Source of the DNA: Minisyncoccales bacterium
GTDB taxonomy: Bacteria > Patescibacteriota > Minisyncoccia > Minisyncoccales > UBA5738
Length of the DNA: 55,401 nucleotides
Direction: 5' to 3'
Assembly (NCBI GenBank): GCA_049641805.1
Contig: JBARNX010000043.1
Coordinates: forward strand, 1-55,401
Positions 35,049 to 51,828 of this stretch are shown piece after piece (the stretch's first letter is position 1; each line of letters begins with the position of its first letter). A program made the position numbers and the translations under genes. The notes below the pieces were generated by a model. That model worked only from the letters and a program-made list of their open reading frames with translations, had not been told where the DNA came from and searched no databases.

Positions 35049-35145
35049 ATAATTCAAAATGAAAATTATTGTGTTGAAATTTTCTTTAAAAATTCCAACG
35101 GTATATTTTTCTTGATTTTGATCTTTGATTTTTCAACTTTTAATT
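35049..35145. repeat. Family-A repeat, copy A11 (left arm truncated)
   Basis: AATTCAAAATGAAAATTATTGTGTTGAAATTTTCTTTAAAAATTCCAACGGTATATTTTTCTTGATTTTGATCTTTGATTTTTCAAC. Confidence 0.8.
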
Positions 35146-35149
35146 TTCA

Positions 35150-35923
35150 CTATTTCGCTCTTCGTTTGACAATTAACTTACTGGTCCACTTTCTCGGATT
35201 GCGGGTACGAACGCCCATTGCCGGTTTGCCCCACGGAGTCTTGGGATGCCTCAATCCGATACCCGTCCGTCCCTCGCCGCCGCCATGCGGATGGTCGCAG
35301 GGATTCATCACCGAACCGCGCACCGTCGGCCGCCATCCTTTCCTTCTCATCGCGCCCGCAGTATGATAATTTTCGAATCGGTATTCCGGATGCGAGGTCT
35401 TGCCGATCGACGCGTAACATTCCGCCGGCACTTTCCTCACTTCTTTAGAAGGCATCTGCAATTGGACAAATTGGCCTTCGGTAGCCATCACCCGCGCCGC
35501 CGATCCGGCGGACCTTGCCATCTTCCCGCCTTTTCCGGGCTGTAATTCGATATTAAAAACTTCGGTACCGACCGGAATGTTTTTCAGCATCACGCGATTG
35601 CCGGTTTTGATCGCCGCGGTTTCGCCGCAAATGATGTCTGCCCCCGCCACCAATTCATCGGCCGCCAAAACATAGCGCCGGTCCCCGTCATCGTATTTCA
35701 CCAATGCCAAATACGCGGTGCGGTTCGGATCGTATTCCATGGCGATCACTTTTCCCGCGATTCCGAATTTTTCCTGTCCAAAATCAACCACGCGGTACAT
35801 CCTTTTGACGCCGCTGCCGCGATGGCGAACCGTGATCCGGCCGGAGAAATTCCTGCCCGCCTTGCTTTTTAACGGCCTAAGCAAATGCTTTTCCGGCCTT
35901 TTTTTGGATAATAAAACCTTCAT
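35150..35923 (-). CDS. rplB: 50S ribosomal protein L2 (short N-terminus)
   Basis: GRITVRHRGSGVKR.YR.VDF and GSVMNPCDHPHGGGEGR. The TTG track start at 35941 lies in hairpin D1 and was trimmed to the ATG at 35923. Confidence 0.92.
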   Translation of the reverse strand: MKVLLSKKRPEKHLLRPLKSKAGRNFSGRITVRHRGSGVKRMYRVVDFGQEKFGIAGKVIAMEYDPNRTAYLALVKYDDGDRRYVLAADELVAGADIICGETAAIKTGNRVMLKNIPVGTEVFNIELQPGKGGKMARSAGSAARVMATEGQFVQLQMPSKEVRKVPAECYASIGKTSHPEYRFENYHTAGAMRRKGWRPTVRGSVMNPCDHPHGGGEGRTGIGLRHPKTPWGKPAMGVRTRNPRKWTSKLIVKRRAK

Positions 35924-35929
35924 AATAAT

Positions 35930-36064
35930 TTCCAATGTCAAATTTCAAATGTCAAACAAAATCCTAATGCCAAATGTCAAAATAAAATACGGTAATTTAA
36001 TTTTGGCATTTGACATTTGAACTTTGGCATTTGTTTGAAATTTGTCATTTGGATTTTGACATTT
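35930..36064. repeat. Family-D hairpin (CAAATGTCAAA/TTTGACATTTG words), copy D1
   Basis: CCAATGTCAAATTTCAAATGTCAAACAAAATCCTAATGCCAAATGTCAAAAT ... TTTTGGCATTTGACATTTGAACTTTGGCATTTGTTTGAAATTTGTCATTTGG. Confidence 0.7.
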
Positions 36065-36480
36065 TATTTAGGCAGAACTTCAATGCTCTGGCCTTCCTTG
36101 ATTTTCACGATCGCCTTGCGATAGCCCGGTTCCGTGACAATTCCGCGGCCGCGCCGGCGCCGCTTGCCGGGGACATTCACCACATTCACGCCTACGACTT
36201 CCACTCCGTAATAATTTCCAATCGCGCGGGCAACTTCTTTTTTGTTCGCGCCGCTTGCCACTTTGAAAACATACTGGTTGATTTTCACAAGTTTTGAAGC
36301 CTTTTCGGTCACATGCGCGTGTTCCAAAACCCGCATTGCCTGTCCGCTGACTTTGCGAACGGTTTTAACGCTCTCGCCCGTTTTGGCGACGACGGATTTC
36401 TTTTCTTTTTTTAACGCCGCGCTTTTTTTAACGCCGGAATATTTGCCGCCCTCTTTTTTGAATATGTCGGTGATTGCCAT
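36064..36480 (-). CDS. rplW: 50S ribosomal protein L23 with a ~45-aa K-rich N-terminal extension
   Basis: TEKA........N.Y.FKV...ANK.EV..AI...Y.V.V..VN..N..GK.RR...........KA.V....G. Confidence 0.9.
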   Translation of the reverse strand: MAITDIFKKEGGKYSGVKKSAALKKEKKSVVAKTGESVKTVRKVSGQAMRVLEHAHVTEKASKLVKINQYVFKVASGANKKEVARAIGNYYGVEVVGVNVVNVPGKRRRRGRGIVTEPGYRKAIVKIKEGQSIEVLPK

Positions 36481-36482
36481 AG

Positions 36483-37202
36483 CTATTTCTTTTTATTCGC
36501 GGATTTCTTGGCGGTTTCGACGATCTTTACCGCTTCTTTTTTCTTGCTTTCGTCCGGCTTTTTGGCTGCGACCGCGCCAATATCGCTGATCGCTCCCACC
36601 GGCATCAACAAACATTTGGTATTCAACAAATCAAGAACATTGAGCTTGGCCGCTTCAATCGTTTTTACATCGGCAAGATTGCGGCTCGCCAAAACTTCGT
36701 TTTTGGCCGCCGCGGGCAACGCGATCATTATTTTTCCTTTTTTGAAATTATCGTTGACTTTTCTGACGCTTTCCAAAACTCGGAGCATTTCTTTGGTTTT
36801 AGGCTGGCTAACCGCCAAGCTTTCAAGAAAGAACAGCGAGTTGGCCGAAACTTTGGCCGTCAATATCATCGCCAGGGCTTTCCGTCTCATTTTCTTGTTG
36901 ATTTTTCCGCCGTAAATCTTTTCATTGGTCGGACCAAAAACCACTCCTCCATGGCGCCATTGCGGCGATCTGATTGATCCCTGCCGCGCGCGGCCGGTAC
37001 CCTTCTGCCTCCACGGTTTCTTGCCGCCGCCGGATACTTGGCCCCTGCCTTTCGTATGCGCCGTTGACTGCCGCCGGTTATTCATCTGGGTCGTCGCCAC
37101 CTGATAAACCAAATCTCGGTTCATCTTGACTTCAAACAAATCTTTCGGAAGTTCAATCGTCCCCGCGGCTTCCCCTTTTTGATTGTATGTCGTAACTTGC
37201 AT
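36483..37202 (-). CDS. rplD: 50S ribosomal protein L4 with a K-rich C-terminal extension
   Basis: GGGKKPWRQKGTGRARQGSIRSPQWRHGGVVFGP. Confidence 0.94.
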   Translation of the reverse strand: MQVTTYNQKGEAAGTIELPKDLFEVKMNRDLVYQVATTQMNNRRQSTAHTKGRGQVSGGGKKPWRQKGTGRARQGSIRSPQWRHGGVVFGPTNEKIYGGKINKKMRRKALAMILTAKVSANSLFFLESLAVSQPKTKEMLRVLESVRKVNDNFKKGKIMIALPAAAKNEVLASRNLADVKTIEAAKLNVLDLLNTKCLLMPVGAISDIGAVAAKKPDESKKKEAVKIVETAKKSANKKK

Positions 37203-37207
37203 ATTCT

Positions 37208-37317
37208 TAATTCAAAATGTAAAAATCAAAAATCAAAATCAAGGAATAATATATCGTTAAAATTTTTTTAAAAAATTTTAACTCCATAATTTTCAACTTT
37301 GATCTTTAAACTTTCAA
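37208..37317. repeat. Family-A repeat, copy A12 (inverted orientation)
   Basis: AATGTAAAAATCAAAAATCAAAATCAAGGAATAATATATCGTTAAAATTTTTTTAAAAAATTTTAACTCC..TTTTCAACTTTGATCTTTAAAC. Confidence 0.85.
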
Positions 37318-39782: not shown

Positions 39783-39918
39783 CCAATTACCAATTCCCAA
39801 TTACCAATAAATGCCAGAATGTCCAATATCAAAATTCAAATTTCATTTATATTTTCAAATTGGACATTTTTAAATTTTGGAATTTATTGGAAATTTGTCA
39901 TTGGAAATTGGAAATTTC
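39783..39918. repeat. Family-C hairpin, copy C3 (largest)
   Basis: CCAATTACCAATTCCCAATTACCAAT ... ATTGGAAATTTGTCATTGGAAATTGGAAATTTCC, in the 249-nt tuf-fusA spacer. Confidence 0.65.
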
Positions 39919-39919
39919 C

Positions 39920-42028
39920 TTACTTTCTCTTTCCCGAAATAACTTCTTGGGCGACATTATTGGGAACTTCTTCGTAATGGTCGAATTCCATCGTGAATGT
40001 TCCCCGGCCCTGCGTCAACGAACGCAGATTTGTGGCATAACCGAACATTTCCGCCAGCGGCACTTTCACATTGATGATTTTGCTTTCCATCTGGTCGTCG
40101 GAATTTTCAATCTTGCCGCGACGCGACGACAGATCGCCAATCACATCTCCGAAAAATTCTTCCGGAATCGTCACTTCCAATTTCATTATCGGTTCAAGCA
40201 ATATCGGATTGGCTTTTCTGGCCGCGGTTTGCAGCGCCATCGAACCGGCGATCTTAAACGCCATTTCCGACGAATCAACTTCGTGGAACGAACCGTCATA
40301 TAGCGTCGCTTTCATATCCACCATCGGATAGCCGGCCACCACGCCCTTGGCCATGGCTTCCTCAATTCCTTTCTCGGTCGGTTTGATATATTCTTTGGGA
40401 ATGACGCCGCCTTTGATCTCGTCCGCAAATTCAAATCCTTCGCCGCGTTCCTTGGGTTCAAGCCTGATCCATACATCGCCGTACTGGCCGCGGCCGCCGG
40501 ATTGCTTAACGAATTTACCCTGCGCTTCGGAATTGGTTTTAATGGTTTCTTTATATGCCACCTGCGGGCGTCCCACATTGGCTTCAACTTTAAATTCGCG
40601 GCGCATCCGGTCAACCAAAATATCCAAATGCAATTCGCCCATGCCGCGGATAATAATCTCATTTGTTTCCTGGTCGGTTTCCACGCGGAAAGTCGGATCC
40701 TCATCGGACAGCTTCTTTAGCGCAAAACCCATTTTCTCTTGATCAGCCTTAGTCTTGGGCTCGATGCGAATCGAAATAACCGGTTCCGGAAAAGTAATCT
40801 TTTCAAGAATGATCGGATTATTTTCGTCGGAAAGGGTGTGCCCGGTGGAAGTGTTTTTCAAACCAACGGTTGCGGCAATATCGCCGGCATACACATCGTC
40901 AATCTCGGTACGGTCATTGGCATACATACGCAATAAGCGTCCGATCCTTTCCTTCTCTCCCGTGGTCGTGTTTAAAACATAGGATCCTTTTTTCAGATAA
41001 CCCGAGTAAACCCGGAAAAATGTCAGCGTCCCGACATACGGATCCGCCGCCACTTTAAACGCCAGCGCCGTGAACGGTTCATCGTCGGAAGGTCCGCGCA
41101 AAACCTCGGATTCGCCTTTCACCTCCATACCTTTCACCGGCGGCAAATCCAAAGGACTGGGCAAATAATAGCAAACCGCGTCAAGTACCGGTTGAACGCC
41201 GGTGTTTTTCAAGGACGAACCGTAAAATACCGGAATAATCGTTCCCTTCATCGTGGCCGCGCGCAAAACCCGGCGCAGATCGTTCAAAGCGATTTCTTCC
41301 CCGGCCAAATAGCTGTTCATTAAAGTTTCATCTTCCGCCACGATTTTTTCGATCAATTTGGCGCGCCATTCATTGGCCATTTCCACCATATCCGCCGGAA
41401 TTTCTTCCTCAACCACATCCTGGCCGTTATCGCCGTTAAAACGCACCGCTTTCATCGTCAGCAAATCAACCACGCCGCTCAACGCGCTTTCTTCTCCGAT
41501 CGGAATATTCGCGGCCACGGCGTTTTTGTTCAATTTTTTCCAAATGGACTGCAAACTGCGTTCAAAGCTGGCGCCTGTCCTATCCATCTTATTGATAAAA
41601 CAGATGCGCGGCACGGAATATTTGTCCGCTTGTCGCCACACGGTTTCGGATTGGGGCTGCACGCCGGCCACGCCGTCAAACACCACCACCGCACCGTCCA
41701 AGACGCGCAAAGCGCGCTGCACTTCGGCGGTAAAATCGATATGTCCGGGAGTGTCGATAATATTAAAGCGATGTTCATTGGTTTTCTGCTTGCTCAAATA
41801 CTCTCCCGGAGACCAAAAACAGGTCGTTGCCGCCGAAGTAATGGTGATACCGCGCTCGCGCTCCTGAGCCATCCAGTCCATAATGGCCGCGCCTTCGTGC
41901 ACCTCGCCAATCTTGTGCGACAAGCCGGTATAAAACAAAATCCGCTCGGATGTGGTGGTTTTGCCGGCATCGATATGAGCGATTACGCCGAAATTACGAT
42001 ATTTTTCAATTGGAGCTAAGCGTGGCAT
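39920..42028 (-). CDS. fusA: Elongation factor G
   Basis: [24 protein letters not shown] and NKMDR. The TTG track start at 42052 lies in repeat B1 and was trimmed to the ATG at 42028. Confidence 0.96.
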
Positions 42029-42030
42029 AA

Positions 42031-42150
42031 AAATGCAAAATGTAAAAATCAAAGATCAAAATGACAATGTAAAATGTTAAAGTGTCGCGACATGGACATT
42101 TTGCAACTTTACATTGTCATTTTCCATTTTGATTTTTCAATTTTAAATTT
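42031..42150. repeat. Family-B hairpin repeat, copy B1
   Basis: AAAAATCAAAGATCAAAATGACAATGTAAAATGTTAAAGTGTCGCGACATGGACATTTTGCAACTTTACATTGTCATTTTCCATTTTGATTTTTC. Confidence 0.85.
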
Positions 42151-42167
42151 AAAATAATCTTTTCCAC

Positions 42168-42205
42168 AAAAAAACAGAAAGGGTAAATCATTCGCCTTTC
42201 TGTTT
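42168..42205 (-). terminator. Rho-independent terminator immediately after rpsG (inside the str operon)
   Basis: 11-bp stem AAACAGAAAGG/CCTTTCTGTTT, followed on the minus strand by UUUUUUUGUGG. Confidence 0.7.
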
Positions 42206-42216
42206 CTTTGATTAAA

Positions 42217-42684
42217 TTAAAACTTGAAATGTGCGAATGCCCGGTTTGCCTCGGCCATACGGTGCGTATCCTCTTTTTTCTTGATGGCCACGCCCGTGTT
42301 ATTGGCCGCGCCAATCAGCTCCTCGGCCAATTTGATCTTCATCGGCTGACCCTTCTTCTTGCGCGCCGATTCAAGCAACCAACGAACCGCCAGCGCAGTA
42401 CCCCTTTCCTTGACCACCGGCTTGGGTACTTGATAGGTCGCGCCGCCAACGCGCTGGGATTTAACTTCCAAAAGCGGGCGGGCGTTTTCCAAAGCCAGAT
42501 TGAAAACTTCCAGCGGATCTTTCTGGGTTTTCTCTTTCATTATATCCAAAGCGCCGTAAACGATCTTCTTGGCCGCGTTCTTCTTACCCTTCTTCATTAT
42601 ATGGTTAATGATCTGGGAAATTAAAACGCTGTTATAAATCGCGTCCGGAGCAATTTCTTTTTTTGTATTTTTCTTGCCGCTCAT
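42217..42684 (-). CDS. rpsG: 30S ribosomal protein S7
   Basis: PD..YNS.L....IN..M..GKK..A..IVY.AL ... ARKKKG.PM...LA.E.I.AANN.G.A.KKKED.HRMAEAN.AFAHF. Confidence 0.93.
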
Positions 42685-42696
42685 AAAATTCAACTT

Positions 42697-42772
42697 TTGA
42701 CTATTGACTGTTTACTTTTAACGAAAACGCGAATTTGAATTTAGTCAACGGTTAATAGTTAATGGTTAATGA
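42697..42772. repeat. Family-F-like hairpin, copy F3
   Basis: TTGACTATTGACTGTTTACTTTTAAC ... GTCAACGGTTAATAGTTAATGGTTAA. Confidence 0.5.
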
Positions 42773-42776
42773 TAAT

Positions 42777-43187
42777 TTATTTGCCCTTTTTGACGCCGTA
42801 TTTCGATCTTTCCTGCTTGCGCTTCTCCACTCCGGTGCAATCAAGCTTGCCGCGCACGATATGATAACGCACGCCCGGAAGATCTTTTACGCGGCCGCCG
42901 CGGATCAACACGATCGAATGTTCCTGCAATTTGTGGCCTTCGCCCGGAATATAAGCCGTAACTTCCATGCCGTTGGTCAACTTCACCCTGGCCACCTTGC
43001 GCAACGCCGAATTCGGTTTCTTGGGAGTCGAGGTAAATACTTTGGTGCAAATGCCGCGCTTCAAGGGCGAACTGTAATTCCGGCCCCGGTTTTTCAAAGT
43101 ATTAAAACCAAACGCCAGCGCCGGCGATTTGGTTTTATGCACGCGCTTCGTCCGCTTATGTTTAATCAATTGGTGAATAGTTGCCAT
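42777..43187 (-). CDS. rpsL: 30S ribosomal protein S12
   Basis: MATIHQLIK......K.KSPAL......[61 protein letters not shown]. The track start at 43316 was trimmed to the ATG at 43187. Confidence 0.95.
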
Positions 43188-43211
43188 AGCAAAATGTATT
43201 GCGAATTTTAA

Positions 43212-43249
43212 AAGGTCGTTCCTCGGCGTGCTCGCCGAGGTGCGACCTT
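43212..43249 (-). promoter_or_regulatory. Strong GC hairpin plus U-rich tract in the rpsL leader (terminator- or attenuator-like), ending 24 nt before the rpsL ATG
   Basis: AAGGTCG-TT-CCTCGGCG-TGCT-CGCCGAGG-TG-CGACCTT, i.e. 15 paired positions. Confidence 0.55.
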
Positions 43250-43350
43250 GGTAAACTGCATTCTGAATTCGTGTATCAAACAAAATATAATTACCACAAT
43301 AAAAAATAAAAGTCAAACTAGTTTATACTTATTGTTTATACTTATTATAT

Positions 43351-43388
43351 TATTCTATAATTTTAGCTATGGCTAAAATTATAGAATA
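43351..43388. promoter_or_regulatory. Perfect 17-bp-arm palindrome carrying a TATAAT on each strand (candidate operator or -10 region upstream of the str operon)
   Basis: TATTCTATAATTTTAGC-TATG-GCTAAAATTATAGAATA. Preceded by a tandem 13-mer, GTTTATACTTATT x2, at 43321-43346. Confidence 0.45.
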
Positions 43389-43535
43389 TATTGGTTTTAT
43401 GAAAAAAATCCACATTGCTCAATCCTATACAATTCTCGCGATGGCAACTTTCATATGGGTCTGATTTTGTCCAAAATAAACCGAAGAGCGGGCTCCACAC
43501 CGAAATCCGTTTTCACTTTTAATTTAGAAACAGAT

Positions 43536-44168
43536 CTACACCGGCGGGACGCCCACGATCAGGCGATATAAGAACATCAGGATGGGATCCATGATCGGAG
43601 AAAGGAAGTAGATTATTATGAAAAGAAAAACGAATCCGTACCGCTGGAGAAAAATTTTGAAATCTTCCTGCGACGGCGGCAAAAGCGCGAACAAAATATG
43701 CGAGCCGTCCAGCGGCGGAATCGGAATGAGGTTGAAAACCGCCAACACCAAATTAATAATTACCACCGACTGCGCCAAAGTGTAAAAACCGGCGCTCACC
43801 GGGTCCAAGATTACCGGCCAAAACCTTAATATCAAGCCAAAAATCGCCGCCAGAGCGAAATTCGCGGCCACGCCCGCAACCGCCACTTTGACTTGGCCGT
43901 ATTTTTGATCGCGGAAATTATAAGGATTGATCGGCACGGGTTTGGCCCATCCGAAAATGAACGGCGACCGCAACAAGATCAATAACAAAGGCAAGAAAAA
44001 CGAACCGACCCAATCAAGATGCTTCAACGGATTTAAAGTTAAACGGCCGGCGTATTTTGCCGTGGGATCGCCCAGCGAATTTGCCACCGCGCCGTGCGCC
44101 ACCTCGTGGATAACCACCGAAAAAATCAGCGCGATAATTGAAAAAATTAAAATTAAAATTTCAGCCAT
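43536..44168 (-). CDS. Site-2 protease family (peptidase M50) membrane metalloprotease
   Basis: HEVAHG (HExxH) in the first transmembrane helix, and NLIPIPPLDGSH. The track start at 44213 was trimmed to the ATG at 44168. Confidence 0.8.
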   Translation of the reverse strand: MAEILILIFSIIALIFSVVIHEVAHGAVANSLGDPTAKYAGRLTLNPLKHLDWVGSFFLPLLLILLRSPFIFGWAKPVPINPYNFRDQKYGQVKVAVAGVAANFALAAIFGLILRFWPVILDPVSAGFYTLAQSVVIINLVLAVFNLIPIPPLDGSHILFALLPPSQEDFKIFLQRYGFVFLFIIIYFLSPIMDPILMFLYRLIVGVPPV

Positions 44169-44182
44169 AAAATTAGACAAAG

Positions 44183-44240
44183 CTCGAATATCGAATATCG
44201 AAATCCGAAACAAGTTCGCGCTTCGGGTTTCGAATTTTAA
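44183..44240. repeat. Family-E hairpin, copy E2
   Basis: GAATATCGAATATCGAAATCCGAAACAAG-TTCGCG-CTTCGGGTTTCGAATT. Confidence 0.5.
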
Positions 44241-44271
44241 CTCGGTTACATCTTATCACAAAGCCCGCCTC

Positions 44272-44300
44272 TTGCCAATTCATCGAAAATATCTTATTAT
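44272..44300 (+). promoter_or_regulatory. Candidate sigma-70-type promoter for rpmB
   Basis: TTGCCA, a 17-nt spacer, then TATTAT, ending 21 nt upstream of the rpmB ATG. The AT-rich context makes chance matches likely. Confidence 0.35.
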
Positions 44301-44321
44301 AGCTCTGTTAACAAAATATCT

Positions 44322-44513
44322 ATGTCAAAAATTTGCGCATTGTGCGGAAAACAAGGAATGATGACTTGGTCGCGCGTCCGCTTGAGGGCAACCAAGTTCA
44401 ACCCCACCGCCAAAAGAAAACAATATCCCAATTTGCAATCGACAACTTTACCCACCGGGAAAAAAGTAACCGCTTGCGCCAAATGCATCAAAACATTGAA
44501 CAAAACCAAATAG
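44322..44513 (+). CDS. rpmB: 50S ribosomal protein L28 (Cys4 form)
   Basis: MSKICALCGK.......S........R...PNLQ........G.KV..C.KC.K. Confidence 0.8.
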   Translation: MSKICALCGKQGMMTWSRVRLRATKFNPTAKRKQYPNLQSTTLPTGKKVTACAKCIKTLNKTK

Positions 44514-44545
44514 CCCATAAGCAATGGACGGTTTGTTCGCTTGCC

Positions 44546-44566
44546 AATCCGCCGCAAAAGCGGATT
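44546..44566 (+). terminator. Weak hairpin after rpmB
   Basis: AATCCGC-CGCAAAA-GCGGATT, followed by GTTGCTTATT. Confidence 0.35.
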
Positions 44567-44671
44567 GTTGCTTATTCCGTTAATTCCAAAATTTCCAATA
44601 TCCAATTTCAAAATAAATGTTAAAATTCCATAATATCAAAATGGGACGCGTTAAATTTTGACATTTGGGAA

Positions 44672-44742
44672 CGGGTTGTATTACAACGGCAGTATGTGCC
44701 CTTGGGGTGGGTACGATCCGGGTTCAATTCCCGGCAGCCCGA
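44672..44742 (+). tRNA. tRNA-Pro (anticodon GGG), no encoded CCA, weak D stem
   Basis: CGGGUUG UA UUAC AACGGCA GUAU G UGCCC UUGGGGU GGGUA CGAU CCGGG UUCAAUU CCCGG CAGCCCG A. G37 is typical of Pro. One U-U mismatch in the D stem. Confidence 0.75.
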
Positions 44743-44800
44743 CAAACAAAACTAGTTGCGTTTGAAATAATTTTTTAAAAAACCGGCACAACACCGGCGA

Positions 44801-44824
44801 AATCCGGCTTCGCCGGATTTTTTG
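44801..44824 (+). terminator. Rho-independent terminator after tRNA-Pro
   Basis: AATCCGGC-TTC-GCCGGATT, followed by TTTTGTTGTTTTT. Confidence 0.75.
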
Positions 44825-44887
44825 TTGTTTTTCCCAAAACCATTGATTGGATTTGAAGACGCGGCGAAAATTCAATATACTGATTTA

Positions 44888-47413
44888 ATGGATATTTTTT
44901 CTAACTCGACAAAAGGAACGGATGAGATCCTCTCAAAATTGGGCACCGATTTAAAAAACGGCCTTGATACGCAAACCGTCGCGCGGCGGCAAGAGAAATA
45001 CGGCAAAAACAACCTTGCCCTGAGAGAAACCGCGGGCTGGCATATTTTTTTCCGCCAATTCAAGTCGGCGTTCGTTTATCTCTTGATCGCGGCCATAACC
45101 ATCACCTTTTTTCTGGGCGAATGGATCGACGCGCTGATGATCTTGATCTTCCTGGCAATCAACGGCGGTTTGGGATTCTATCAGGAATTCAGCTCGGAAA
45201 AAACCTCCCAGCTATTGAATAAATTCGCGTTGCCCCGGGCTAAAGTATTGAGAAACGGAAGAACGGAACAAATAACCGCCGATGCCTTGGTTCCCGGAGA
45301 CATAGTGATACTTGAAACCGGCAACCGAGTACCGGCCGATCTGCGGCTGATCGAAACGGATAATACAATCATCGACGAAACGATTTTAACCGGCGAATCG
45401 GCCCCGGTTCATAAAAATTCCATAACTCTGAAGGCAAAACCCGCTTCTTACGGTCAAGCCGCCAACTTGGCGTTTTCGGGTACCGATGTCCTTAAAGGCG
45501 AAGCGCGCGGCATAGTAATCGCCACAGGCAAGGATACGGTTTTCGGCCAAATCGCCAAACTGGCCGGTGAAACAAAAAAAGAAAGCGATTTCGAAAAAGG
45601 CATCCGGCGTTTTTCGCAATTCATTTTAAAACTGGTCGGAATAACGCTTTTAGTGGTTTTCTCCGCCCATTTGCTTATCAGCCGCGACGGCATCGATATT
45701 TTTGAACTGGTAATTTTTTTGGTGGCTTTGACCGTAAGCGTCATCCCCGAAGCCCTGCCGCTGGTAACCACTTTTTCCCTGTCCCGAGGCGCCAAACGGC
45801 TGGCAAAGAAAAAAGTCATCGTCAAACGACTGTCCGCAATTGAAGATTTGGGAAGTATGGAAATCCTGTGCAGCGACAAAACGGGCACATTGACGGAAAA
45901 TCGTCTGGCGATTGCCGATGTTTATTCGCAAAACCGCGATCAAACAATATGGATGGCCAATCTGGCGTCTTCCTTCGAACTGGAATCGAAAATCGAACCG
46001 TTTGACATCGCGCTGGAAAAAGGATTGTCCGTCGAACAAAAAAAGAAAATCAAAGCGGCGGTTAAAATATCGGAAAATACTTTTGATCCCGAATCAAGAT
46101 TGAATTCGGCGGCGGTTCTGGCCGGCGGCAAAATTTTTCTGGTCAAAAGAGGCGCTCCGGAAGCGATTATCGCATCGTGCGCGGGATTGGCAAAAACCGA
46201 GAAAGAAAATATCAATGAATGGATAAGCCGGCAGGGCAAACAAGGCCGCCGGGTTTTGGCCGTTGCCTGCCGGGAATTCGAAGCCGGCGGCAAAAAAAAC
46301 TGCGACTATGACCGCCGGCTTTCCCGGCGCGATTTCATATTCGCCGGGGTTGTTTCTTTTGTCGATCCGATCAAAAAAAGCTCGTTTGCCACTGTCAAAC
46401 AAGCGGAAAAACTCGGAGTCAAGATAATCATTATAACCGGCGACAATCCCGAAGTCGCCGGAGCGGTCGCCTGCGAGATCGGCTTGATCGAAACGCCGGA
46501 GAAAGTGGTAACCGAAGAACAGTGGCGCCGGGCCAACGCCGAAAAACGCCGTTATTTTCTGGAAAATTACCGCGTGTTCGCCCGCATCACGCCCGAGGAA
46601 AAATTCGCAATCATTGAGGCATTGCGCGGCGCGCATACGGTCGGCTTCTTGGGAGAAGGCATCAATGACGCCGCGGCATTGAAGATCGCCGGCGTATCGA
46701 TGGCGGTCGACAGCGCCTCCGATATCGCGCGCGAAGCCTCGGATATTATTTTACTGGAAAAGAATTTGGATGTCGTCATCGAAGGCATCAGGGAAGGCCG
46801 CCAGATATTTGCCAATACTGCCAAATACATCAAATCAACACTGGCATCCAACTTTGGAAATTTCTTCGCCGTGGCCATCGCCTCCTTGATAGTCGATTTC
46901 CTGCCAATGCTTCCGATCCAAATACTGCTGGTCAATTTGCTGTCCGATGCCCCGATGATCTCGATTTCCACCGATACGGTCCAAGAGAATGAACTTAAAT
47001 CGCCCAAAAAATATCAAACCAACGAGATTATCATCATCTCTATGATCCTAGGCATGGTCAGCACGGTTTTTGACTTTATATTTTTTTCGTCTTTTTACCG
47101 CGCTTCTCCGGAAGTCCTGCGAACCAATTGGTTCATCGGCAGTATTTTGACGGAATTGGCGCTGTTGTTTTCCATCCGCACCACAACCCATTTTTTGAAA
47201 GCAAAACGCCCTTCGCTGCCGATAATCGCCTTAAGCGCCGCCACTTTAATTCTGACCGTCGGCCTTCCCTATACGGCTTTCGGACAGGAAGTTTTTCGAT
47301 TCGTCGCGCCGGCGCCGACTCATCTGGGATGGATATTTTTACTGGTGTCCGCGTATTTCGCCGTTTCCGAAACGGTGAAATTGCTTTATTACAAAAACCG
47401 GGCAAAAGCTTAG
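44888..47413 (+). CDS. Cation-transporting P-type ATPase (P2/P3-like, Mg2+/Ca2+-type; ion not assignable)
   Basis: TGES.PV, CSDKTGTLTEN (phospho-Asp), ITGDN and GEGINDAAALK.A. The track start at 44822 overlaps the tRNA terminator and was trimmed to the ATG at 44888. Confidence 0.88.
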   Translation: MDIFSNSTKGTDEILSKLGTDLKNGLDTQTVARRQEKYGKNNLALRETAGWHIFFRQFKSAFVYLLIAAITITFFLGEWIDALMILIFLAINGGLGFYQEFSSEKTSQLLNKFALPRAKVLRNGRTEQITADALVPGDIVILETGNRVPADLRLIETDNTIIDETILTGESAPVHKNSITLKAKPASYGQAANLAFSGTDVLKGEARGIVIATGKDTVFGQIAKLAGETKKESDFEKGIRRFSQFILKLVGITLLVVFSAHLLISRDGIDIFELVIFLVALTVSVIPEALPLVTTFSLSRGAKRLAKKKVIVKRLSAIEDLGSMEILCSDKTGTLTENRLAIADVYSQNRDQTIWMANLASSFELESKIEPFDIALEKGLSVEQKKKIKAAVKISENTFDPESRLNSAAVLAGGKIFLVKRGAPEAIIASCAGLAKTEKENINEWISRQGKQGRRVLAVACREFEAGGKKNCDYDRRLSRRDFIFAGVVSFVDPIKKSSFATVKQAEKLGVKIIIITGDNPEVAGAVACEIGLIETPEKVVTEEQWRRANAEKRRYFLENYRVFARITPEEKFAIIEALRGAHTVGFLGEGINDAAALKIAGVSMAVDSASDIAREASDIILLEKNLDVVIEGIREGRQIFANTAKYIKSTLASNFGNFFAVAIASLIVDFLPMLPIQILLVNLLSDAPMISISTDTVQENELKSPKKYQTNEIIIISMILGMVSTVFDFIFFSSFYRASPEVLRTNWFIGSILTELALLFSIRTTTHFLKAKRPSLPIIALSAATLILTVGLPYTAFGQEVFRFVAPAPTHLGWIFLLVSAYFAVSETVKLLYYKNRAKA

Positions 47414-47887
47414 GAGGCTTTCATAAATCTCTAAAATTTCAAAAATGCGGCGCGCCTCGTTATGGCGATGTTTCTCCAAGCCAAAGTTACTAAAAAATCC
47501 CTCGACAAGCTCGGGATTCTTTAGTAACCCTGTGAAAAAGTAATTCCACAAATATAGGTGGGTGCCAAGGCCTCCGCCACGGCGGAGGACCATTTCAAGC
47601 TCCCGTGGATGTTGTGTTGGAAAACTTTTATTACAGGGTTGTTTTGAGTATAACCAACCCCAGAACCTTGTCAAATCCCACTTATCCCCAATTATTAAAC
47701 AAAATTAACCCTGATTTTCGCCAAGTTCAAACCCGGTTTTTTCATAAATTCACGATTAAATTACCTTGAATTGCAAAACAAGCATTGGGGAAATTTCACC
47801 AAATGCGGCGGTAACCGCGCAAATTTTAGGTAAAAAATATTTGAAAAACAATATGCCTATTTTTAAAAATTGTCAATAGTAGCACAA

Positions 47888-47912
47888 CTAAAAATCCCGC
47901 AATAACGGGATT
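47888..47912 (-). terminator. Second (distal) terminator of the 47992-49065 gene
   Basis: The minus strand reads AAUCCCG-UUAUUG-CGGGAUU-UUUUAG. Confidence 0.65.
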
Positions 47913-47939
47913 AAAAAATAAATTCAAATACAGTTTGGC

Positions 47940-47979
47940 AAAGGTCTAACCCCCGCGATTACGCGGGGGTTAGACCTTT
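47940..47979. terminator. Perfect 18-bp GC-rich hairpin 13 nt downstream of the 47992 stop
   Basis: AAAGGTCTAACCCCCGCG-ATTA-CGCGGGGGTTAGACCTTT. Confidence 0.7.
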
Positions 47980-47991
47980 GAAATACAAAAT

Positions 47992-49065
47992 TCAAATACC
48001 CAAGGTTTGCACCAATTGCTTAATTAGCGATACCGCTACGGCTGGGGCTTGGAGGCTTACCGAGAGGCGGCCTTCATCGTCTTTCACGGTCCATGGTTTT
48101 TCGACAATGTTCACTTTCTTGTTGGCCGCGTCATAGGAATATTCGTAACCCGAGGTCAATTCGTAGTCGTCGACATAATCTTTGGCGACTTCAACCGGTA
48201 TGGCATTGCGCAAAAACATCTTGGGAAGGCCGTGCAATTCCATGGCTTTTTCCATCAGTTTCTGGTCGGTTTCCAAACGCTGGCGGATGGGCTCGATCCC
48301 CAATTCGTCGCCTTCCTTGGCCACCAATTTTTGTTTGTCGAAACCGGAACACGCCGGATTGTCGCAAATCAAATAAAATTCTTCCGTTTTTTCATCGTAA
48401 CCGACATTAGCCGTGGGCAACAATCCTAAATTGCGCGATGTGTTACAGGCCGGGCAAATCCGGCGGCCGGCGATGCGGCCGGCAATCACATTGGTCGGCA
48501 CATCGATAAACGCCATAATATCCGCGTCGTCGCGGGCGCCGATAAGTTCGCGGAAAAACAGCGAATAAGACACTTGGTCCATATCGCGCGGAAATCCGTC
48601 GATAAAAATCGTTTTCTTGGATTTCTTGGCAATCTCCATTTTAATCAGCGCCAGAATCAATTCGGTCGGCAAGAGCGTTTTGGTGTCGCGGCCTTCAATG
48701 GCCGGGATCAATTTTTCCACCGCGATCCAGCCGCGATAATTTTTCTTAAGGTATTCGGTAATTTCCTGTTTTTTGGATTCATCTTGAATATCCTTGGAAA
48801 TCCCGCGAATCATATCGCCCACGGAAAAATGCTCAAGTTTGTCGGCGCCCAGCAATTCGGCCAGCATTTTGGAATAAGTGCCTTTGCCGGAATTTTTTTT
48901 GCCCAAAAGATAAACAATAAAAGTATTGTCTTTGACATATTCCTTCAACTTTTCGATTTCCTCCCCGGCCTTGTAATAAAAATAATCGTTGCGCTCCTTG
49001 GGGTCGGTCAGATTAAACTTGCGATCCTTGCCTTCCATTTTGGTTTTGAAAATTGGAAAATCCAT
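47992..49065 (-). CDS. Adenylate/nucleoside-monophosphate kinase-like protein, 357 aa, with a Zn-type LID and a ~120-aa C-terminal extension
   Basis: P-loop LLGKKNSGKGTYSKML. DGFPR. LID GRRICPACN...CDNPAC. The C-terminal region has no motif I recognise. Confidence 0.65.
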   Translation of the reverse strand: MDFPIFKTKMEGKDRKFNLTDPKERNDYFYYKAGEEIEKLKEYVKDNTFIVYLLGKKNSGKGTYSKMLAELLGADKLEHFSVGDMIRGISKDIQDESKKQEITEYLKKNYRGWIAVEKLIPAIEGRDTKTLLPTELILALIKMEIAKKSKKTIFIDGFPRDMDQVSYSLFFRELIGARDDADIMAFIDVPTNVIAGRIAGRRICPACNTSRNLGLLPTANVGYDEKTEEFYLICDNPACSGFDKQKLVAKEGDELGIEPIRQRLETDQKLMEKAMELHGLPKMFLRNAIPVEVAKDYVDDYELTSGYEYSYDAANKKVNIVEKPWTVKDDEGRLSVSLQAPAVAVSLIKQLVQTLGI

Positions 49066-49074
49066 GAATTTAGT

Positions 49075-49190
49075 TGAAAATTAAAAAATCAAAGATCAAA
49101 ATGACAATGCAAAATGTTAAAATGTCGCGATTTGGACATTTTTTCACTTTAAATTGTCATTTTACATTTTGATTTTTACATTTTACATTT
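49075..49190. repeat. Family-B hairpin repeat, copy B2
   Basis: AAAAATCAAAGATCAAAATGACAATGCAAAATGTTAAAATGTCGCGATTTGGACATTTTTTCACTTTAAATTGTCATTTTACATTTTGATTTTTAC. Confidence 0.85.
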
Positions 49191-50091
49191 ACTTTTCCGT
49201 CTTTAAGAAAAGGAGTTCGCCGTCGGTTTTAAAAACAATATCGCCGTTTTGGTCGGTTCTCAATGTTTTAATATCATACTTTGCCAACAAATCCAAGGTC
49301 TCCTGATGCGGATGGCCGTAGGAGTTGTTCAATCCCGCGGAAATCACGGCCGCGGCGGGAAACAGCCCCGCGGTAAACGCCTCATCAACCGAAGTTTTGC
49401 TGCCGTGGTGCGCCACTTTCAAAACATCGGCCGGTTCGGGATCAACTGAAAACGCGGTTTTTTCTTCCTTAACGGTGGCATCGCCCGTAAATAAAAACGA
49501 TCTCCGACCGTAAACCAAGCGCGCCACCACCGAGGAATCATTGGCGCTTTGGCTGGAATTCAAAACACCGCCGGTCGGCGCCAAAATTTTCAAAACGCAA
49601 TCAGGATCAAACCCAAGAACAAGCATCCGGCCCGGCCGCGCGATTACCAAATTAGCGCCTTCCTTGGCAATCAAATCGCCCCATTCTTCGCTTTCCGCGT
49701 TATCCTTGACGGCCCCCGACCAAATGATATTGCGCACTTGATAATTCTTAAGCACCGCCAGCAATCCGGCCAAATGATCGCGATCGGCATGGGATAAGAC
49801 CACCCAATCAATATCACGGTCATAAAATGGCATCGCGGCCCCCAATTTATCCAGCACCGCGCCGCCGGGTCCGCCATCAATCAAAATTTGGACTCCGTTG
49901 GGCAATTGCGCAAAAGCCGCGTCTCCCTGGCCCACATCAAAAAATTTCACTTCCAAGTATTTCCTCTGCGAATTTCCAAAAATCGCCAGCCAAACAAAGA
50001 AATTGGCCAGCGCCAATCCCAAAACCAGCCATTTTATCCATTGATCTTGTTTCTCACCCGCTTTTCGCGAATTTTCGCCCGGTTTCTCCAT
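49189..50091 (-). CDS. ComEC/Rec2-related metallo-beta-lactamase domain protein with a single N-terminal transmembrane helix (no competence channel domain)
   Basis: FDVGQGDA, LSHADRDHLAGL and VAHHGSKTS. Confidence 0.75.
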   Translation of the reverse strand: MEKPGENSRKAGEKQDQWIKWLVLGLALANFFVWLAIFGNSQRKYLEVKFFDVGQGDAAFAQLPNGVQILIDGGPGGAVLDKLGAAMPFYDRDIDWVVLSHADRDHLAGLLAVLKNYQVRNIIWSGAVKDNAESEEWGDLIAKEGANLVIARPGRMLVLGFDPDCVLKILAPTGGVLNSSQSANDSSVVARLVYGRRSFLFTGDATVKEEKTAFSVDPEPADVLKVAHHGSKTSVDEAFTAGLFPAAAVISAGLNNSYGHPHQETLDLLAKYDIKTLRTDQNGDIVFKTDGELLFLKTEK

Positions 50092-50283
50092 TCGACTATT
50101 CTAGCACATTGTCCAATTTTAAAGCGCCGGCTTTAAACCCGCGCTTTAAAATTTGATTCTTTTTATTCCCCGTCAGCTTGCTGCGGGAAACAAAAAGAAT
50201 GAGGATTCCAAAGGAAACATCCTTTGGTTGATGGCGGGGTTAATACCCCGACAGCAATGTATTTTTTATTTATTTTTTGAAAA

Positions 50284-50475
50284 TTATGCCGCGGCTGCGG
50301 CTGCGGCCTCCGCCTCCGCCTTGCCCATAATCTTAAACATCTTGGTGCCGCAAACCGGGCATTCGCCGGTCATCGCTTGGCGAACCATTCCGCCCTTGCC
50401 TTTCATTTCCACGGGTTTCTCGTTCTTCATTTCCTGTTTGGCCTTGCATTTAACGCAATATCCGATTGTTGCCAT
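50284..50475 (-). CDS. Small zinc-ribbon protein (DUF5679-like) with a poly-Ala/Glu tail
   Basis: 63 aa with CVKCKAK.EM......MKGKGG......G.CPVCGTKMF.I. Confidence 0.55.
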   Translation of the reverse strand: MATIGYCVKCKAKQEMKNEKPVEMKGKGGMVRQAMTGECPVCGTKMFKIMGKAEAEAAAAAAA

Positions 50476-50621
50476 GGTATTATTTATTATTTATTATTTT
50501 TACTTGTCCTTATTCGAACTTATTCAATATGCCGGTTTGATTAAAACGACCTTTAACCAGCCTAGATTCATTGCTTTATATAGAGTAATTGAGCTTAAAA
50601 ATTAAGTCAAGAGTAAAATCA

Positions 50622-50738
50622 ATTTAAAATTAAAAAATCAAAGATCAAAATGACAATACAAAATGTTAAAATGCCGCGATTTGGATATTTTTCAACTTTA
50701 AATTGTCATTTTCCATTTTGATTTTTTCATTTTACATT
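50622..50738. repeat. Family-B hairpin repeat, copy B3 (in the divergent 50475/50790 spacer)
   Basis: AAAAATCAAAGATCAAAATGACAATACAAAATGTTAAAATGCCGCGATTTGGATATTTTTCAACTTTAAATTGTCATTTTCCATTTTGATTTTTTC. Confidence 0.85.
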
Positions 50739-50789
50739 AAACGCGGTTTATTCTAATATAGAGCCATCTCGATCTAAATTTAAATAAAT

Positions 50790-51713
50790 ATGGCACAAGA
50801 AAAAATCTATGTCATCGGGCACAAATCGCCGGATACTGATACGGTTTGTTCGGCAATCGCCTATGCTGAATATCTCAAAAAAAACAAGATTGACGCGGTA
50901 GCCGCGGTTTGCGGAGATTTAAACCCGGAAACCAAGTTTGTTTTAAAGACCTTCGGTATCGATAAACCCAAAAAAATCGATTCGGTCGCGGGAAAAATCT
51001 TAACGCTGGTGGATCATAACGAAACCAGCCAAATGCCCGAGGGCGCGGATGCGGCCAGGATTATCGAAATCATCGACCATCATAAAATTTCTTTCGTATG
51101 TCCCGAGCCAATTAAATTTCACTCCGAACCGCTCGGCTCTACCGCCGCCATCGTGGCCAAGATAATGCTGGCCAACAAATTCAAAATCACCAAGCAACTG
51201 GCCGGAATCTTGGTTTCGGCGATCCTTTCGGACACCGTAGTCTTTAAATCAACCACGACCACGGAAACTGATATCAAAATCGCCAAAATTTTAGGCAAAA
51301 TCGCCAAAATCCCCAATTTGAAAACTTTCGGGATCGAAATCAAAAAACAAAAGGCCAGCCTCAAAGGAATGAACGCCGGCCAAATCCTGCGTTCGGATTT
51401 CAAAACCTTTGAAACAAACGGCAAAAAATTCGGCATCGGCCAGATCGAAGCGGTTGATTTGAAAGAAGCAAAAAACCGCGCCGCCGAACTTCTCAAAGAG
51501 ATGGAAAAAACAAACCAAAAAGAAGGATTGAGCTTCACCGCGCTGATGATCACCGACATCATCAACTGCGGTTCGGAAATTCTGATCGCCGGCAACGCCT
51601 CGACCATTGAAAAAGCTTTTGGCAAAACCTGCGCCAATAACGCGATTTATATGGAAAATATGATGTCCCGCAAAAAAGACCTCCTGCCTCCGGTAATGAA
51701 AGCCATCGGATAA
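50790..51713 (+). CDS. ppaC: Family II (Mn-dependent, DHH-DHHA2) inorganic pyrophosphatase
   Basis: VIGHKSPDTDTVCSAIAYA, LVDHNE, IIDHHK, SDT..FKS.TTT and GS. Confidence 0.85.
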   Translation: MAQEKIYVIGHKSPDTDTVCSAIAYAEYLKKNKIDAVAAVCGDLNPETKFVLKTFGIDKPKKIDSVAGKILTLVDHNETSQMPEGADAARIIEIIDHHKISFVCPEPIKFHSEPLGSTAAIVAKIMLANKFKITKQLAGILVSAILSDTVVFKSTTTTETDIKIAKILGKIAKIPNLKTFGIEIKKQKASLKGMNAGQILRSDFKTFETNGKKFGIGQIEAVDLKEAKNRAAELLKEMEKTNQKEGLSFTALMITDIINCGSEILIAGNASTIEKAFGKTCANNAIYMENMMSRKKDLLPPVMKAIG

Positions 51714-51732
51714 TTTCTTGCTATTGCCGAAA

Positions 51733-51789
51733 GCGAATTCGTGGAGATTTGATCTCCCAAAAGCTGAGATCAATTCTCCGCGAATTCGC
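51733..51789. other. 24-nt-arm hairpin between ppaC and ribE
   Basis: GCGAATTCGTGGAGATTTGATCTC / GAGATCAATTCTCCGCGAATTCGC with 2 mismatches. No following U tract. Confidence 0.6.
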
Positions 51790-51828
51790 GCCCGCGGATA
51801 ACACCCAGCAAATAATGTAACCAACAAT

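Follow-up and report, generated by a model that had tools for sequence, protein, structure and literature searches.

The window, by which we mean the whole 55,401-nucleotide stretch of Minisyncoccales DNA analysed, carries three copies of a repeat, family B, each ~118 nt long and all on the same strand. B1 (42032–42149, minus strand; nhmmer 115.6 bits) separates the rpsG terminator from the fusA ATG (42028), ending 3 nt from that codon. B2 (49072–49189, minus strand) exactly fills the spacer from the stop codon of an MBL/ComEC-like gene (49189) to the ATG of an ADK-like gene (49065), with 6 nt left before the latter, and B3 (50621–50738, minus strand) is found in the spacer between the divergent DUF5679-like gene (start 50475, minus strand) and ppaC/DHH (start 50790, plus strand), 51/145 nt from the neighbouring start codons. 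An earlier note on this DNA had described three dispersed repeats at these places, in this gene context and with ~90% identity judged by eye. All three statements held, the measured pairwise identities being 86% for B1–B2, 86% for B1–B3 and 92% for B2–B3, with a mean column identity of 87% when the flanks are included. A fixed distance to the start codons, which it had suggested checking, was not observed, the distance varying from copy to copy.

Each copy is predicted to fold, on either strand, into one long imperfect hairpin of ~50 bp, the arms being complementary out to their outermost words. The minimum free energies range from −25.9 to −38.2 kcal/mol (−34 to −38 kcal/mol for B1) with z-scores of −4.1 to −7.4, and 0 of 200 shuffled sequences were as stable. 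The inner-arm word AAAATGACAATNNAAAATGTTAAA occurs exactly three times and once more in the opposite arm, against a chance expectation of 0.02, and the outer word AAATCAAAGATCAAAAT gave 17 matches against 0.07 expected. As the earlier note had claimed for the outermost words, AAATCAAAGATCAAAAT is common to families A and B, being found also in the family A spacers at 27.6–37.3 kb. In the Rfam search of the window, tRNAs alone reached the gathering threshold, and no copy of B matched any family. The best sub-threshold match inside the element, MIR6027 (24.6 bits, cut-off 95), is a generic hairpin, as is SurC (33 bits, cut-off 80, over 42121–42274), which touches only the end of B1. We consider it very improbable that B is a discrete small RNA or a riboswitch-like leader regulating fusA, the ADK-like gene and ppaC. 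The stable fold, the conserved sequence and the location directly upstream of three genes are in its favour, but besides the lack of an Rfam match, compensatory changes within B are absent (0 of 15 pairs), close relatives differ in the orientation of the element, the genes downstream bear no relation to each other, and copies in other genomes also follow the stop codons of unrelated genes.

The origin of the arms was revealed by a longer element. The full cassette is ~480 nt long and encodes only a four-helix-bundle protein of 122–126 aa (Pfam 23S_rRNA_IVP, PF05635; NCBIfam TIGR02436). Its 3′ flank is complementary to its leader plus the first ~10 codons, so that the cassette ends form a long stem. 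In one locus (L007), a PF05635 ORF (E 1.2e-16; TIGR02436) is located, with a B-type arm on each side, between the stop codon of topA and the ATG of recR, and homologous genes bordered by the same arms are found in MAGs of Paceibacterota, Moranbacteria, Terrybacteria and Berkelbacteria. When aligned to the cassette ends, the 5′ halves of B were identical at 48–50 of 52–54 nt and the 3′ halves at 43–51 of 50–60 nt; for B1 and the ends of the full cassette, the figures were 50/54 and 49/54. Family B lacks the ~340-nt ORF body, its two ends being joined via a ~14-nt centre (GTCCAAATCGCGAC), and it retains only the start codon and 7–10 codons of the gene. The relic read from B1 (42077–42127, minus strand), ATG GAA AAT GAC AAT GTA AAG ... 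TAA (MENDNVKLQNVHVATL*), is oriented in the same way as the flanking genes, and its first 7 codons give the N-terminus of the full-length proteins (MENDNVK; M(E/Q)ND(N/K)xKFKNEF among homologs). The B2 relic starts at 49167–49165 with TAA immediately after, and the relic ORF of B3 spans 50716–50666. No full-length four-helix-bundle gene was found in the window by tblastn.

Judged by these alignments, both arms of B are homologous to the ends of the four-helix-bundle gene cassette, which makes B its ORF-less miniature. We therefore think it probable that family B represents, in miniature and non-coding form, a hairpin-flanked gene cassette widely distributed among CPR/Patescibacteria. As all copies have the same junction, the miniature appears to have arisen by a single deletion and then to have spread as a non-autonomous element. 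The direction of the derivation, ORF deletion versus gene capture by a hairpin, rests on parsimony and not on proof. The genome junctions recorded for B and its full-length relatives are rpsG|fusA, MBL|ADK, topA|recR, lepB|hisS and PrgI|TraC-like.

The centre of the hairpin had been described in the earlier note as a TCGCGA core, with a 10-bp palindrome, TGTCGCGACA, in the B1 loop. The core is present in B1 and B2, but B3 reads CCGCGA; the palindrome is there as described, in B1 only. That the TGTCGCGACA/TCGCGA core is a transcription-factor operator, the A+T-rich arms being incidental, is scarcely credible despite the perfect 10–12-bp palindrome at the B1 tip. The orthologs in L011/L012/L014 share the CCGCGA of B3, other copies most often have TCTAAATCCCGAC at the centre, and in L007 the sequence homologous to the centre is cassette 3′ UTR. 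Among paralogs in the source metagenome (X2), the arms are constant and the centre (49127–49134) varies most, which argues against a conserved operator.

The miniature cassettes are far from confined to the window. Against a single-copy depth of 128–155 in X2, the B2 centre reaches 2735 and the B3 centre 4314, about 18–33 times single-copy, and at least 11 contigs bear a B-type centre. In one contig (depth 177) the two arms stand 337 nt apart, as in a full-length cassette, and the miniatures outnumber the full-length form by at least 11 B-type contigs to ~1. X2 contigs of genome-like depth enter unrelated flanks at 49190, 50621 and 50738, diverging there with 0.43–0.59 agreement, and metagenome contigs end exactly at both B3 boundaries, 50621 and 50738. 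B-like copies are present in other Paceibacterota MAGs, and the element is found in either orientation relative to transcription. Family B is dispersed, multi-copy, sharply bounded and patchy. Small, non-coding and in its entirety a terminal inverted repeat, and with a presence that varies among relatives, it has much in common with classical MITEs, which descend by deletion from DDE-transposase insertion sequences and are mobilised in trans by the transposase of the latter. We regard this origin as distinctly unlikely, as the full-length relative carries a four-helix-bundle gene and not a transposase, ~135 kb of related loci (L013–L019) contained no Pfam matches to transposase families, no other mobilising enzyme is known or was seen, and no target-site duplication is evident. 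A duplication is not recognisable, the ends being A+T-rich and blending into the terminal repeats: a seeming TAAAT at either end of B2 also belongs to the terminal repeat, and the flanks are A+T-rich. Empty sites are known only in distant relatives.

Among related genomes, copies of B were found in L010/L013 and L011/L012/L014 as well as in the window, and none were found in L015–L019, the element being absent from the 83–62% relatives. Orthologous junctions in relatives lacking B are empty or filled by other hairpins. At the MBL|ADK junction, three lineages carry B, L015, L016 and L017 have unrelated hairpins, the spacer is 8 nt in L018, and the genes overlap in L019. Upstream of fusA, L005 has a B-like copy in the opposite orientation although its EF-G is only 65–72% identical, and the element is absent there in closer relatives (74–92% EF-G identity). 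B3 is inverted in place in L010/L013, a 93%-identical relative, and degraded in L012/L014. B2 behaves differently: its orthologs in L010/L013 and L011/L012/L014 are 92–93% identical with no indels, and the spacer is 92% identical over 123 nt, again with no indels, against Ks of 0.96 for ADK and 1.36 for MBL. B2 is thus under strong sequence constraint, conserved far beyond the neutral expectation and beyond what a purely selfish relic would show. The earlier note had put the high identity down to recent mobility or gene conversion, or else to strong selection, and saw A and B as modular relatives. Dispersal, patchiness, the B3 inversion, the B2 constraint and the common outer words support this in part; the cassette origin had escaped it.

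The B2 constraint would also suit a cis-regulatory hairpin purpose-built at each junction, whether a terminator, attenuator, translational-coupling or mRNA-stability element, with no mobile ancestry. The unrelated hairpins at the same junction in L015–L017 point the same way, as do stop-to-start spacers filled with ends 0–8 nt from the stop and the ATG, and the z-scores of ≤ −3 obtained for the folds of 20 of the 43 window spacers. The cassette ancestry counts against such an in situ origin, the arms holding the start codon and 7–10 codons of a known gene together with that gene's 3′ flank. The sharp ends with heterogeneous flanks, the occurrence of the same element in either orientation relative to transcription, the position of B3 between divergent promoters, and the closer relatives with 8-nt junctions or overlapping genes likewise disagree with it. 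Moreover, the intrinsic terminator scan reported no copy of B, and the host uses separate G+C-rich terminators, apart from the B hairpins. One of these, a terminator-like G+C-containing hairpin after rpsG (ACAGAAAGG...CCTTTCTGT followed by T7; 42170–42205, minus strand), is host sequence outside B1 and recurs at the corresponding position in L015, L016 and L018, all of which lack B1. We consider the in-place origin rather unlikely.

For the miniature cassettes, the sequence suggests how insertions between genes may be accommodated. A consensus scan found a candidate outward sigma-70-like site, TTGTCA-17-TACATT, in the B1 3′ arm (42039–42067, minus strand), ending 10 nt before the fusA ATG, and the same hexamers and spacing are seen in the 3′ flank of full cassettes. 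We infer that the 3′ arm may serve as an outward promoter (TTGTCA-N17-TA(C/A)ATT, 8–14 nt before the next ATG) feeding the next gene, which would then stay expressed. B1, directly behind the conserved terminator, would have replaced whatever fusA promoter relatives have there. By analogy with 23S rRNA intervening sequences and their terminal stems, B1 and B2, if transcribed inside operons, would have their long stem cut by RNase III, and such processing would separate the cistrons. B3 lies upstream of the promoters on both sides and may remain untranscribed. The likely ppaC promoter from the same kind of scan, TTTACA-17-TAATAT (50731–50759, plus strand), has the B3 terminal word as its −35 hexamer; in L014 both hexamers are retained and the spacer between them has changed. 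Over a family A copy, a single metatranscriptome contig reaches into the element, to a point 54 nt or more upstream of the ATG, which argues against a proximal-arm promoter as the sole source of that mRNA.

More tentatively, the cassettes and their ORF-less miniatures could be CPR-wide mobile "intercistronic intervening sequences" at the stop/start junctions of operons, with the Avd-like protein itself perhaps recognising the arms. If this is true, insertions would be tolerated because the stem is removed or opened post-transcriptionally by RNase III and the 3′ arm re-supplies a promoter, and the Avd-like four-helix-bundle protein, not a transposase, would recognise the conserved heptamer-word arms. 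Such recognition would explain the cross-phylum conservation of the arms, the excess of miniatures and the 92% identity of B2 at Ks ~1.

Known systems resemble family B to different degrees. In the early region of phage T7, hairpins between genes are processed by RNase III. The T7 hairpins are, by analogy, similar to B: irregular, with internal loops, and placed between genes that follow one another on a single transcript. The T7 sites do not belong to a repeated mobile cassette, however, and their processing has been demonstrated, whereas B is compared by analogy only. The Neisseria CREE/NEMIS, inverted-repeat elements of ~100–150 bp, are located within transcription units or beside them; promoters can arise at their ends, and RNase III acts on the RNA transcribed from them (PMC2649163). 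The likeness is in the mode of action only, the promoter and RNase III properties being predicted for B. CREE carry a TA duplication and, in many cases, an IHF site, their terminal repeats are 26 bp long, and they belong to a different phylum and have no four-helix-bundle parent; the sequence of B is unrelated, and inspection of the B arms found no CREE-type TA duplication or match to WATCAANNNNTTR. Bacterial MITEs (reviewed in PMC10969869) share with B the short (~118 nt), non-coding, palindromic form, the many dispersed intergenic copies with discrete ends, and, as appears likely for B, the origin as an internal-deletion derivative that is commoner than the longer, full-length element. They differ in that the parent of B has no recognisable transposase and one copy of B is conserved beyond neutral expectation.

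Among known elements, B comes closest to the S23p-carrying intervening sequence (IVS) of 23S rRNA, B itself being located between protein genes and MITE-like in behaviour. We compared B with the IVSs of Leptospira, Coxiella and Brucella, which carry an S23p/four-helix-bundle ORF within 23S rRNA (PMC4990558). In Coxiella, inverted repeats at the termini pair into a 28-bp stem with the S23p ORF in the loop, excision is by RNase III, heptameric repeats precede the ATG, and the ORF is decaying (PMC4990558); among the rRNA insertions of CPR bacteria are some with 23S_rRNA_IVP ORFs and many that are short and without an ORF (PMC11270868). The full-length cassette protein belongs to the same family (PF05635/TIGR02436). 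Also shared are terminal inverted repeats forming a long stem around the ORF, a start codon at the stem or within it, heptamer-like direct repeats before the ATG, decay of the ORFs to ORF-less forms and a sporadic distribution among relatives. On the other hand, B has no 23S_rRNA_IVP ORF in its loop, unlike its full-length relatives; all copies examined lie between protein-coding genes and none in rRNA helices; B is multi-copy, with about 20–30 copies by depth; and the RNase III excision without re-ligation known from the IVS is only predicted for B. In the present DNA, miniatures of a cassette common in ultra-small (CPR) bacteria are interspersed with ordinary genes, in multiple copies and unusually well conserved.

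The family B hairpins are MITE-like, ORF-less miniatures of an IVS-type cassette, a hairpin-bounded unit of ~480 nt that carries a four-helix-bundle gene and is widespread in CPR bacteria. The three copies are at the places given in an earlier note made from the sequence alone, 42032-42149 (B1), 49072-49189 (B2) and 50621-50738 (B3), all on the plus strand. Pairs trimmed to the element are 86-92% identical (B1-B2 86%, B1-B3 86%, B2-B3 92%), and the mean column identity obtained with flanks is 87%. Every copy was predicted to fold, from either strand, into a single long imperfect hairpin of -25.9 to -38.2 kcal/mol (z-scores -4.1 to -7.4), and equal or better folds were seen in 0 of 200 dinucleotide shuffles. 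The inner-arm pattern of B had 4 matches in the window against 0.02 expected, and the outer word AAATCAAAGATCAAAAT had 17 against 0.07; the latter fell mostly in the ribosomal-protein spacers of the family A hairpins, in agreement with the remark that the two families have their outer words in common. Two finer features hold in part, the TCGCGA core being present in B1 and B2 and replaced by CCGCGA in B3, and the 10-bp palindrome being present in B1 and lacking from B2 and B3. No Rfam match to B was found at gathering or E-value thresholds and, as compensatory pair changes within B numbered 0, the repeat alone gives no structural proof.

The full-length form is found in the Berkelbacteria MAG L007, where two B-type arms ~350 nt apart lie between the topA stop codon and the recR ATG, with a 126-aa ORF inside. 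The ORF matches Pfam 23S_rRNA_IVP (E 1.2e-16) and the NCBIfam family TIGR02436 ("four helix bundle protein"). Its homologs at E <= 1e-5 number 3749, and the top-ranking ones, ~70-84% identical, are spread over many CPR phyla. In each cassette context examined (lepB|hisS, lepB|secF and PrgI|TraC-like, from Paceibacterota, Moranbacteria and Terrybacteria), the 5' side ends ...AAAATGTAAAATTAAAAAATCAAA and is followed by the gene start (ATG GAA/CAA AAT GAC AA.), while the 3' side reads T(A/G)A TTTTAACATTTTAAATTGTCATTTTGAT.TTTGAT.TTTACATTTTAAATT and is followed by the ATG of the next gene. These two ends are the two arms of B. The minus strand of B1 reads AAAAATCAAA ATG GAA AAT GAC AAT GTA AAG TTG CAA AAT GTC CAT GTC GCG ACA C TTTAACATTTTACATTGTCATTTTGATCTTTGATTTTTACATTTT, and the relic peptide MENDNVK is the N-terminus of the full-length proteins. 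We compared the halves of B with the cassette of L022, another fetched locus, by local alignment: the 5' end of the three copies (a 24-nt leader and ~10 codons) matched at 50/54, 48/54 and 49/52 positions and the 3' end (stop codon and flank) at 49/54, 43/50 and 51/60, with ~340 nt of the ORF portion missing from B. The B-specific center resembles the 3' UTR of the L007 cassette. The junction is identical in all B copies, including the B-like L002_a from another MAG, which suggests that the miniature probably arose once and then spread. The internal loop that the hairpins conserve, where ATGGAA faces GATCTT, is explained by descent from a cassette, since one arm had to retain a start codon. 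Coding of a small peptide by B was dropped, as the relic ORFs are unconserved and the ATG of B2 is followed immediately by TAA. Also dropped were A-tract DNA curvature, the words having a period of ~7 nt and not 10.5; an IHF motif and a Bacteroidetes-type promoter motif, both misfitting the consensus on inspection; and analogy to integron attC, the neighbors being core housekeeping genes in universal order.

Neighboring genes were identified by Pfam. B1 lies between the genes for EF-G (fusA; 39920-42028, minus strand) and S7 (rpsG; 42217-42693, minus), ending 3 nt ahead of the fusA ATG. Just upstream of it and directly after rpsG is a terminator-like hairpin followed by a run of T7 (42170-42205, minus); as its position is kept in the relatives L015, L016 and L018, rpsL-rpsG and fusA are likely to be separate transcription units in this lineage. 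B2 wholly occupies the 123-nt spacer from the stop codon of a metallo-beta-lactamase/ComEC-like gene (MBL; 49189-50091, minus) to the ATG of an ADK-like kinase gene (47992-49065, minus). B3 lies between two divergent genes, a small gene (50284-50475, minus; DUF5679 in its ortholog) and the DHH/DHHA2 phosphatase gene ppaC (50790-51713, plus). On the DUF5679 side it is upstream of a conserved TTGACT... block, and on the ppaC side it adjoins a TTTACA-17-TAATAT site, the -35 hexamer of which is the last word of B3.

The earlier note had proposed a search for further copies, and such copies were found in both genomes and metagenomes. In the species-representative genome collection, an exact 24-base arm pattern had matches at nine loci, each in a CPR MAG (labeled Saccharibacteria, Paceibacterota, Doudnabacteria, Gottesmanbacteria and, in one case, "Elusimicrobia"), and a search with the B-core pattern gave close relatives of the window in which the sites orthologous to those of B2 and B3 carry copies as well. 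We aligned metagenome contigs to the window and summed their depths. In X2, the source-population metagenome, the single-copy depth is 128-155 and the summed depth was 2735 at the center of B2 and 4314 at that of B3, corresponding to roughly 20-30 copies of B, a figure to which other community members may add. Many X2 contigs of genome-like depth match the window as far as precisely 49190, 50621 or 50738 and run on from there into sequence unrelated to it, and the pattern of breakpoints and depth was repeated in four other metagenomes. At least 11 X2 contigs have a B-type center, and one of genome-like depth (177) has arms 337 nt apart and represents a full-length cassette. In several of these unrelated flanks a stop codon immediately precedes the element or an ATG follows it by ~5 nt. 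Exact-pattern scans of viral contigs, bearing on the idea of a phage vector, gave no match to B. We consider the identity of B and its dispersal well supported, and treat the way it spreads and its effects on neighboring genes as hypotheses.

Relatives at graded distances were fetched with the ADK-like protein as the query. The MBL-ADK junction holds the B element, always 123 nt, in the window, L013 (ADK identity 95%) and L014 (86%), and unrelated hairpins in L015 (83%; 155 nt, CGAA-word type), L016 (81%; 249 nt) and L017 (78%; 174 nt); in L018 (71%) the spacer is 8 nt, and in L019 (62%) the genes overlap by 20 nt. The reading of a fixed distance from B to the ATG as a ribosome-binding signal was downgraded, the distance being explained by insertion into such ancestrally tight junctions. 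A B profile search found no copies in L015-L019. At the rpsG/fusA junction, B1 is present in the window only, and the spacer of L019 is 16 nt. Another locus, L005, has a B-like copy upstream of fusA in the opposite orientation; this copy is an independent acquisition, since the EF-G there is 65-72% identical to that of the window and those of element-free relatives 74-92%. Relative to the window, B3 is flipped in place in L010/L013 (93% identical), and it is chimeric and degraded in L012/L014. Despite this turnover, B2 is strikingly stable: the window and L014 are 92% identical over its 123 nt with zero indels, and the same comparison gives Ks of 0.96 (ADK) and 1.36 (MBL) and a third-position identity of 52-64%. 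The copy that decays in L012/L014 is B3, which is probably not transcribed, and this fits a constraint imposed by some part that B plays in expression at operon junctions.

B1 and B2 each lie in a series of genes that point the same way, and the relic gene has that direction too, so that read-through transcripts would contain an interrupted stem of ~50 bp. If the IVS is a guide, this stem would be a likely RNase III substrate, and cutting would separate the cistrons. A promoter scan found TTGTCA-17-TACATT in the 3' arm of B1 (minus strand, 42067-42039), ending 10 nt ahead of the fusA ATG, and the 3' flank of full-length cassettes has the same hexamers and spacing 8-14 nt ahead of the next gene's ATG; such a candidate promoter would point outward and feed the next gene. 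B1 follows the conserved terminator and occupies the place of ordinary promoter-like sequence in relatives (e.g., TTGCAT-18-TATATA in L015), which would make a putative promoter in B1 the simplest way to express fusA. The RNA runs searched gave no match to the fusA region, and X23, the one metatranscriptome, with distant relatives only, gave no coverage of B. The case for a promoter or processing is weakened by a family A copy, for which the single X23 contig continues into the element and does not begin close to the ATG. A third possibility is translational coupling, in which ribosomes that finish translation at the stem's 5' base may open the stem and expose the next AUG.

Among window spacers of at least 50 nt, 20 of 43 fold with z <= -3. 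Family A comprises A+T-rich elements of ~90-125 nt that separate nearly all ribosomal-protein genes at 27631-37317 (e.g., 29949-30070, 30476-30599, 30786-30894, 31456-31574, 32721-32838, 34224-34267 and 34637-34723); its outer words are those of the cassette 3' arm, its center is different (CAAGGAATAATATATCGTTAAAATTTTC...) and adjacent copies are most alike. The fetched loci gave no match to a full-length relative of family A. Further long intergenic hairpins (10330-10424, 18061-18218, 33471-33560, 35924-36063 and 39799-39919) are built of other short tandem words (TTAATC, AAATCCGAA, AATGTCAAA, etc.); the type with CGAA words is the one that fills the MBL-ADK junction of L015. A second dispersed repeat of ~105 nt, richer in G+C, lies at 50152-50257 and is predicted to form three hairpins in succession (-42 and -49 kcal/mol for the two strands); no Rfam family matched it, its depth is ~30x single-copy in the source metagenome, and it is present at other junctions, e.g., right after rpsD, in L014 (3 copies) and L012 (2 copies) at 91% identity and missing from the orthologous site of L010/L013. 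Between ppaC and the B3 ortholog, L013 has an extra insertion of ~160 nt (1990-2150), lacking from the window, with 24-nt inverted repeats GGGTCTGTCGCCGAATTAGCTTCA ... TGAAGCTAATTCGGCGACAGACCC at its ends, another MITE-like element. The spacer at 51714-51828, from ppaC to a riboflavin-synthase-like gene (Lum_binding), is very strongly folded given its base composition (-44.4 kcal/mol, z -8.5) and is not an FMN riboswitch by Rfam. Most start codons in the window lack a Shine-Dalgarno sequence, an exception being AAGGAG ahead of 23753, which suggests mostly SD-independent initiation; canonical sigma-70-like promoters were seen, e.g., before tpiA (TGGTATAAT, ~7530) and rpsL (TTGACT-17-TAATTA).

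The same cassette follows lepB in L022 and L029 (1501-1935), with hisS next in one and secF in the other. The two arrangements have only the 5' side of the cassette in common, which suggests rearrangement at the 3' arm, and cassettes would thus mark rearrangement points. A type-IV-secretion-like cluster in L020 and L030-L035 (Paceibacterota, Moranbacteria, Terrybacteria) carries the cassette at a constant position (PrgI, cassette, TraC-like, TraG/VirB4-like); either the insertion is old or this site has been used repeatedly. A lone cassette-type arm in L009 (1026-1103) lies just after a GGAGG-ATG and just ahead of a winged-helix segment resembling the DprA C terminus, as read by eye from the translation, and may split, or sit within, a gene.

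The origin of B accounts for the long A+T-rich hairpins wedged between housekeeping genes in this genome and its relatives, and ties the abundant, function-less CPR genes annotated "four helix bundle / 23S rRNA IVS protein" to a mobile hairpin-bounded cassette, which is not limited to rRNA genes and has spawned MITE-like miniatures. The repeats interrupt short-read assemblies of CPR genomes, contigs terminating inside B, and, in organisms that have very few regulators, B and the cassettes may also change how operons are transcribed. The 30-year-old question of the nature and movement of the IVS becomes approachable here, where copies are numerous and in both orientations, occupied as well as empty sites exist and a transposase is lacking.

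The searchable literature yielded no prior account of intergenic palindromes, MITEs or hairpins in CPR/Patescibacteria. The S23p ORF of the 23S rRNA IVS belongs to the same protein family as the cassette gene. The Coxiella IVS is 428 nt long, its stem is cut by RNase III, tandem heptamer repeats precede its ATG and its ORF is decaying (PMC4990558); the insertions known from rRNA genes of CPR include some with 23S_rRNA_IVP ORFs and many short ones at IVS sites that lack an ORF (PMC11270868). B is like the IVS in architecture and ancestry but departs from it in two defining features, having no ORF and lying outside rRNA. It behaves like a MITE, though one without a recognizable transposase parent or target-site duplication, and the MITE review (PMC10969869) makes no mention of CPR. 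In mode of action only, B comes closest to the Correia element of Neisseria, whose ends can give rise to promoters and which is an RNase III substrate (PMC2649163).
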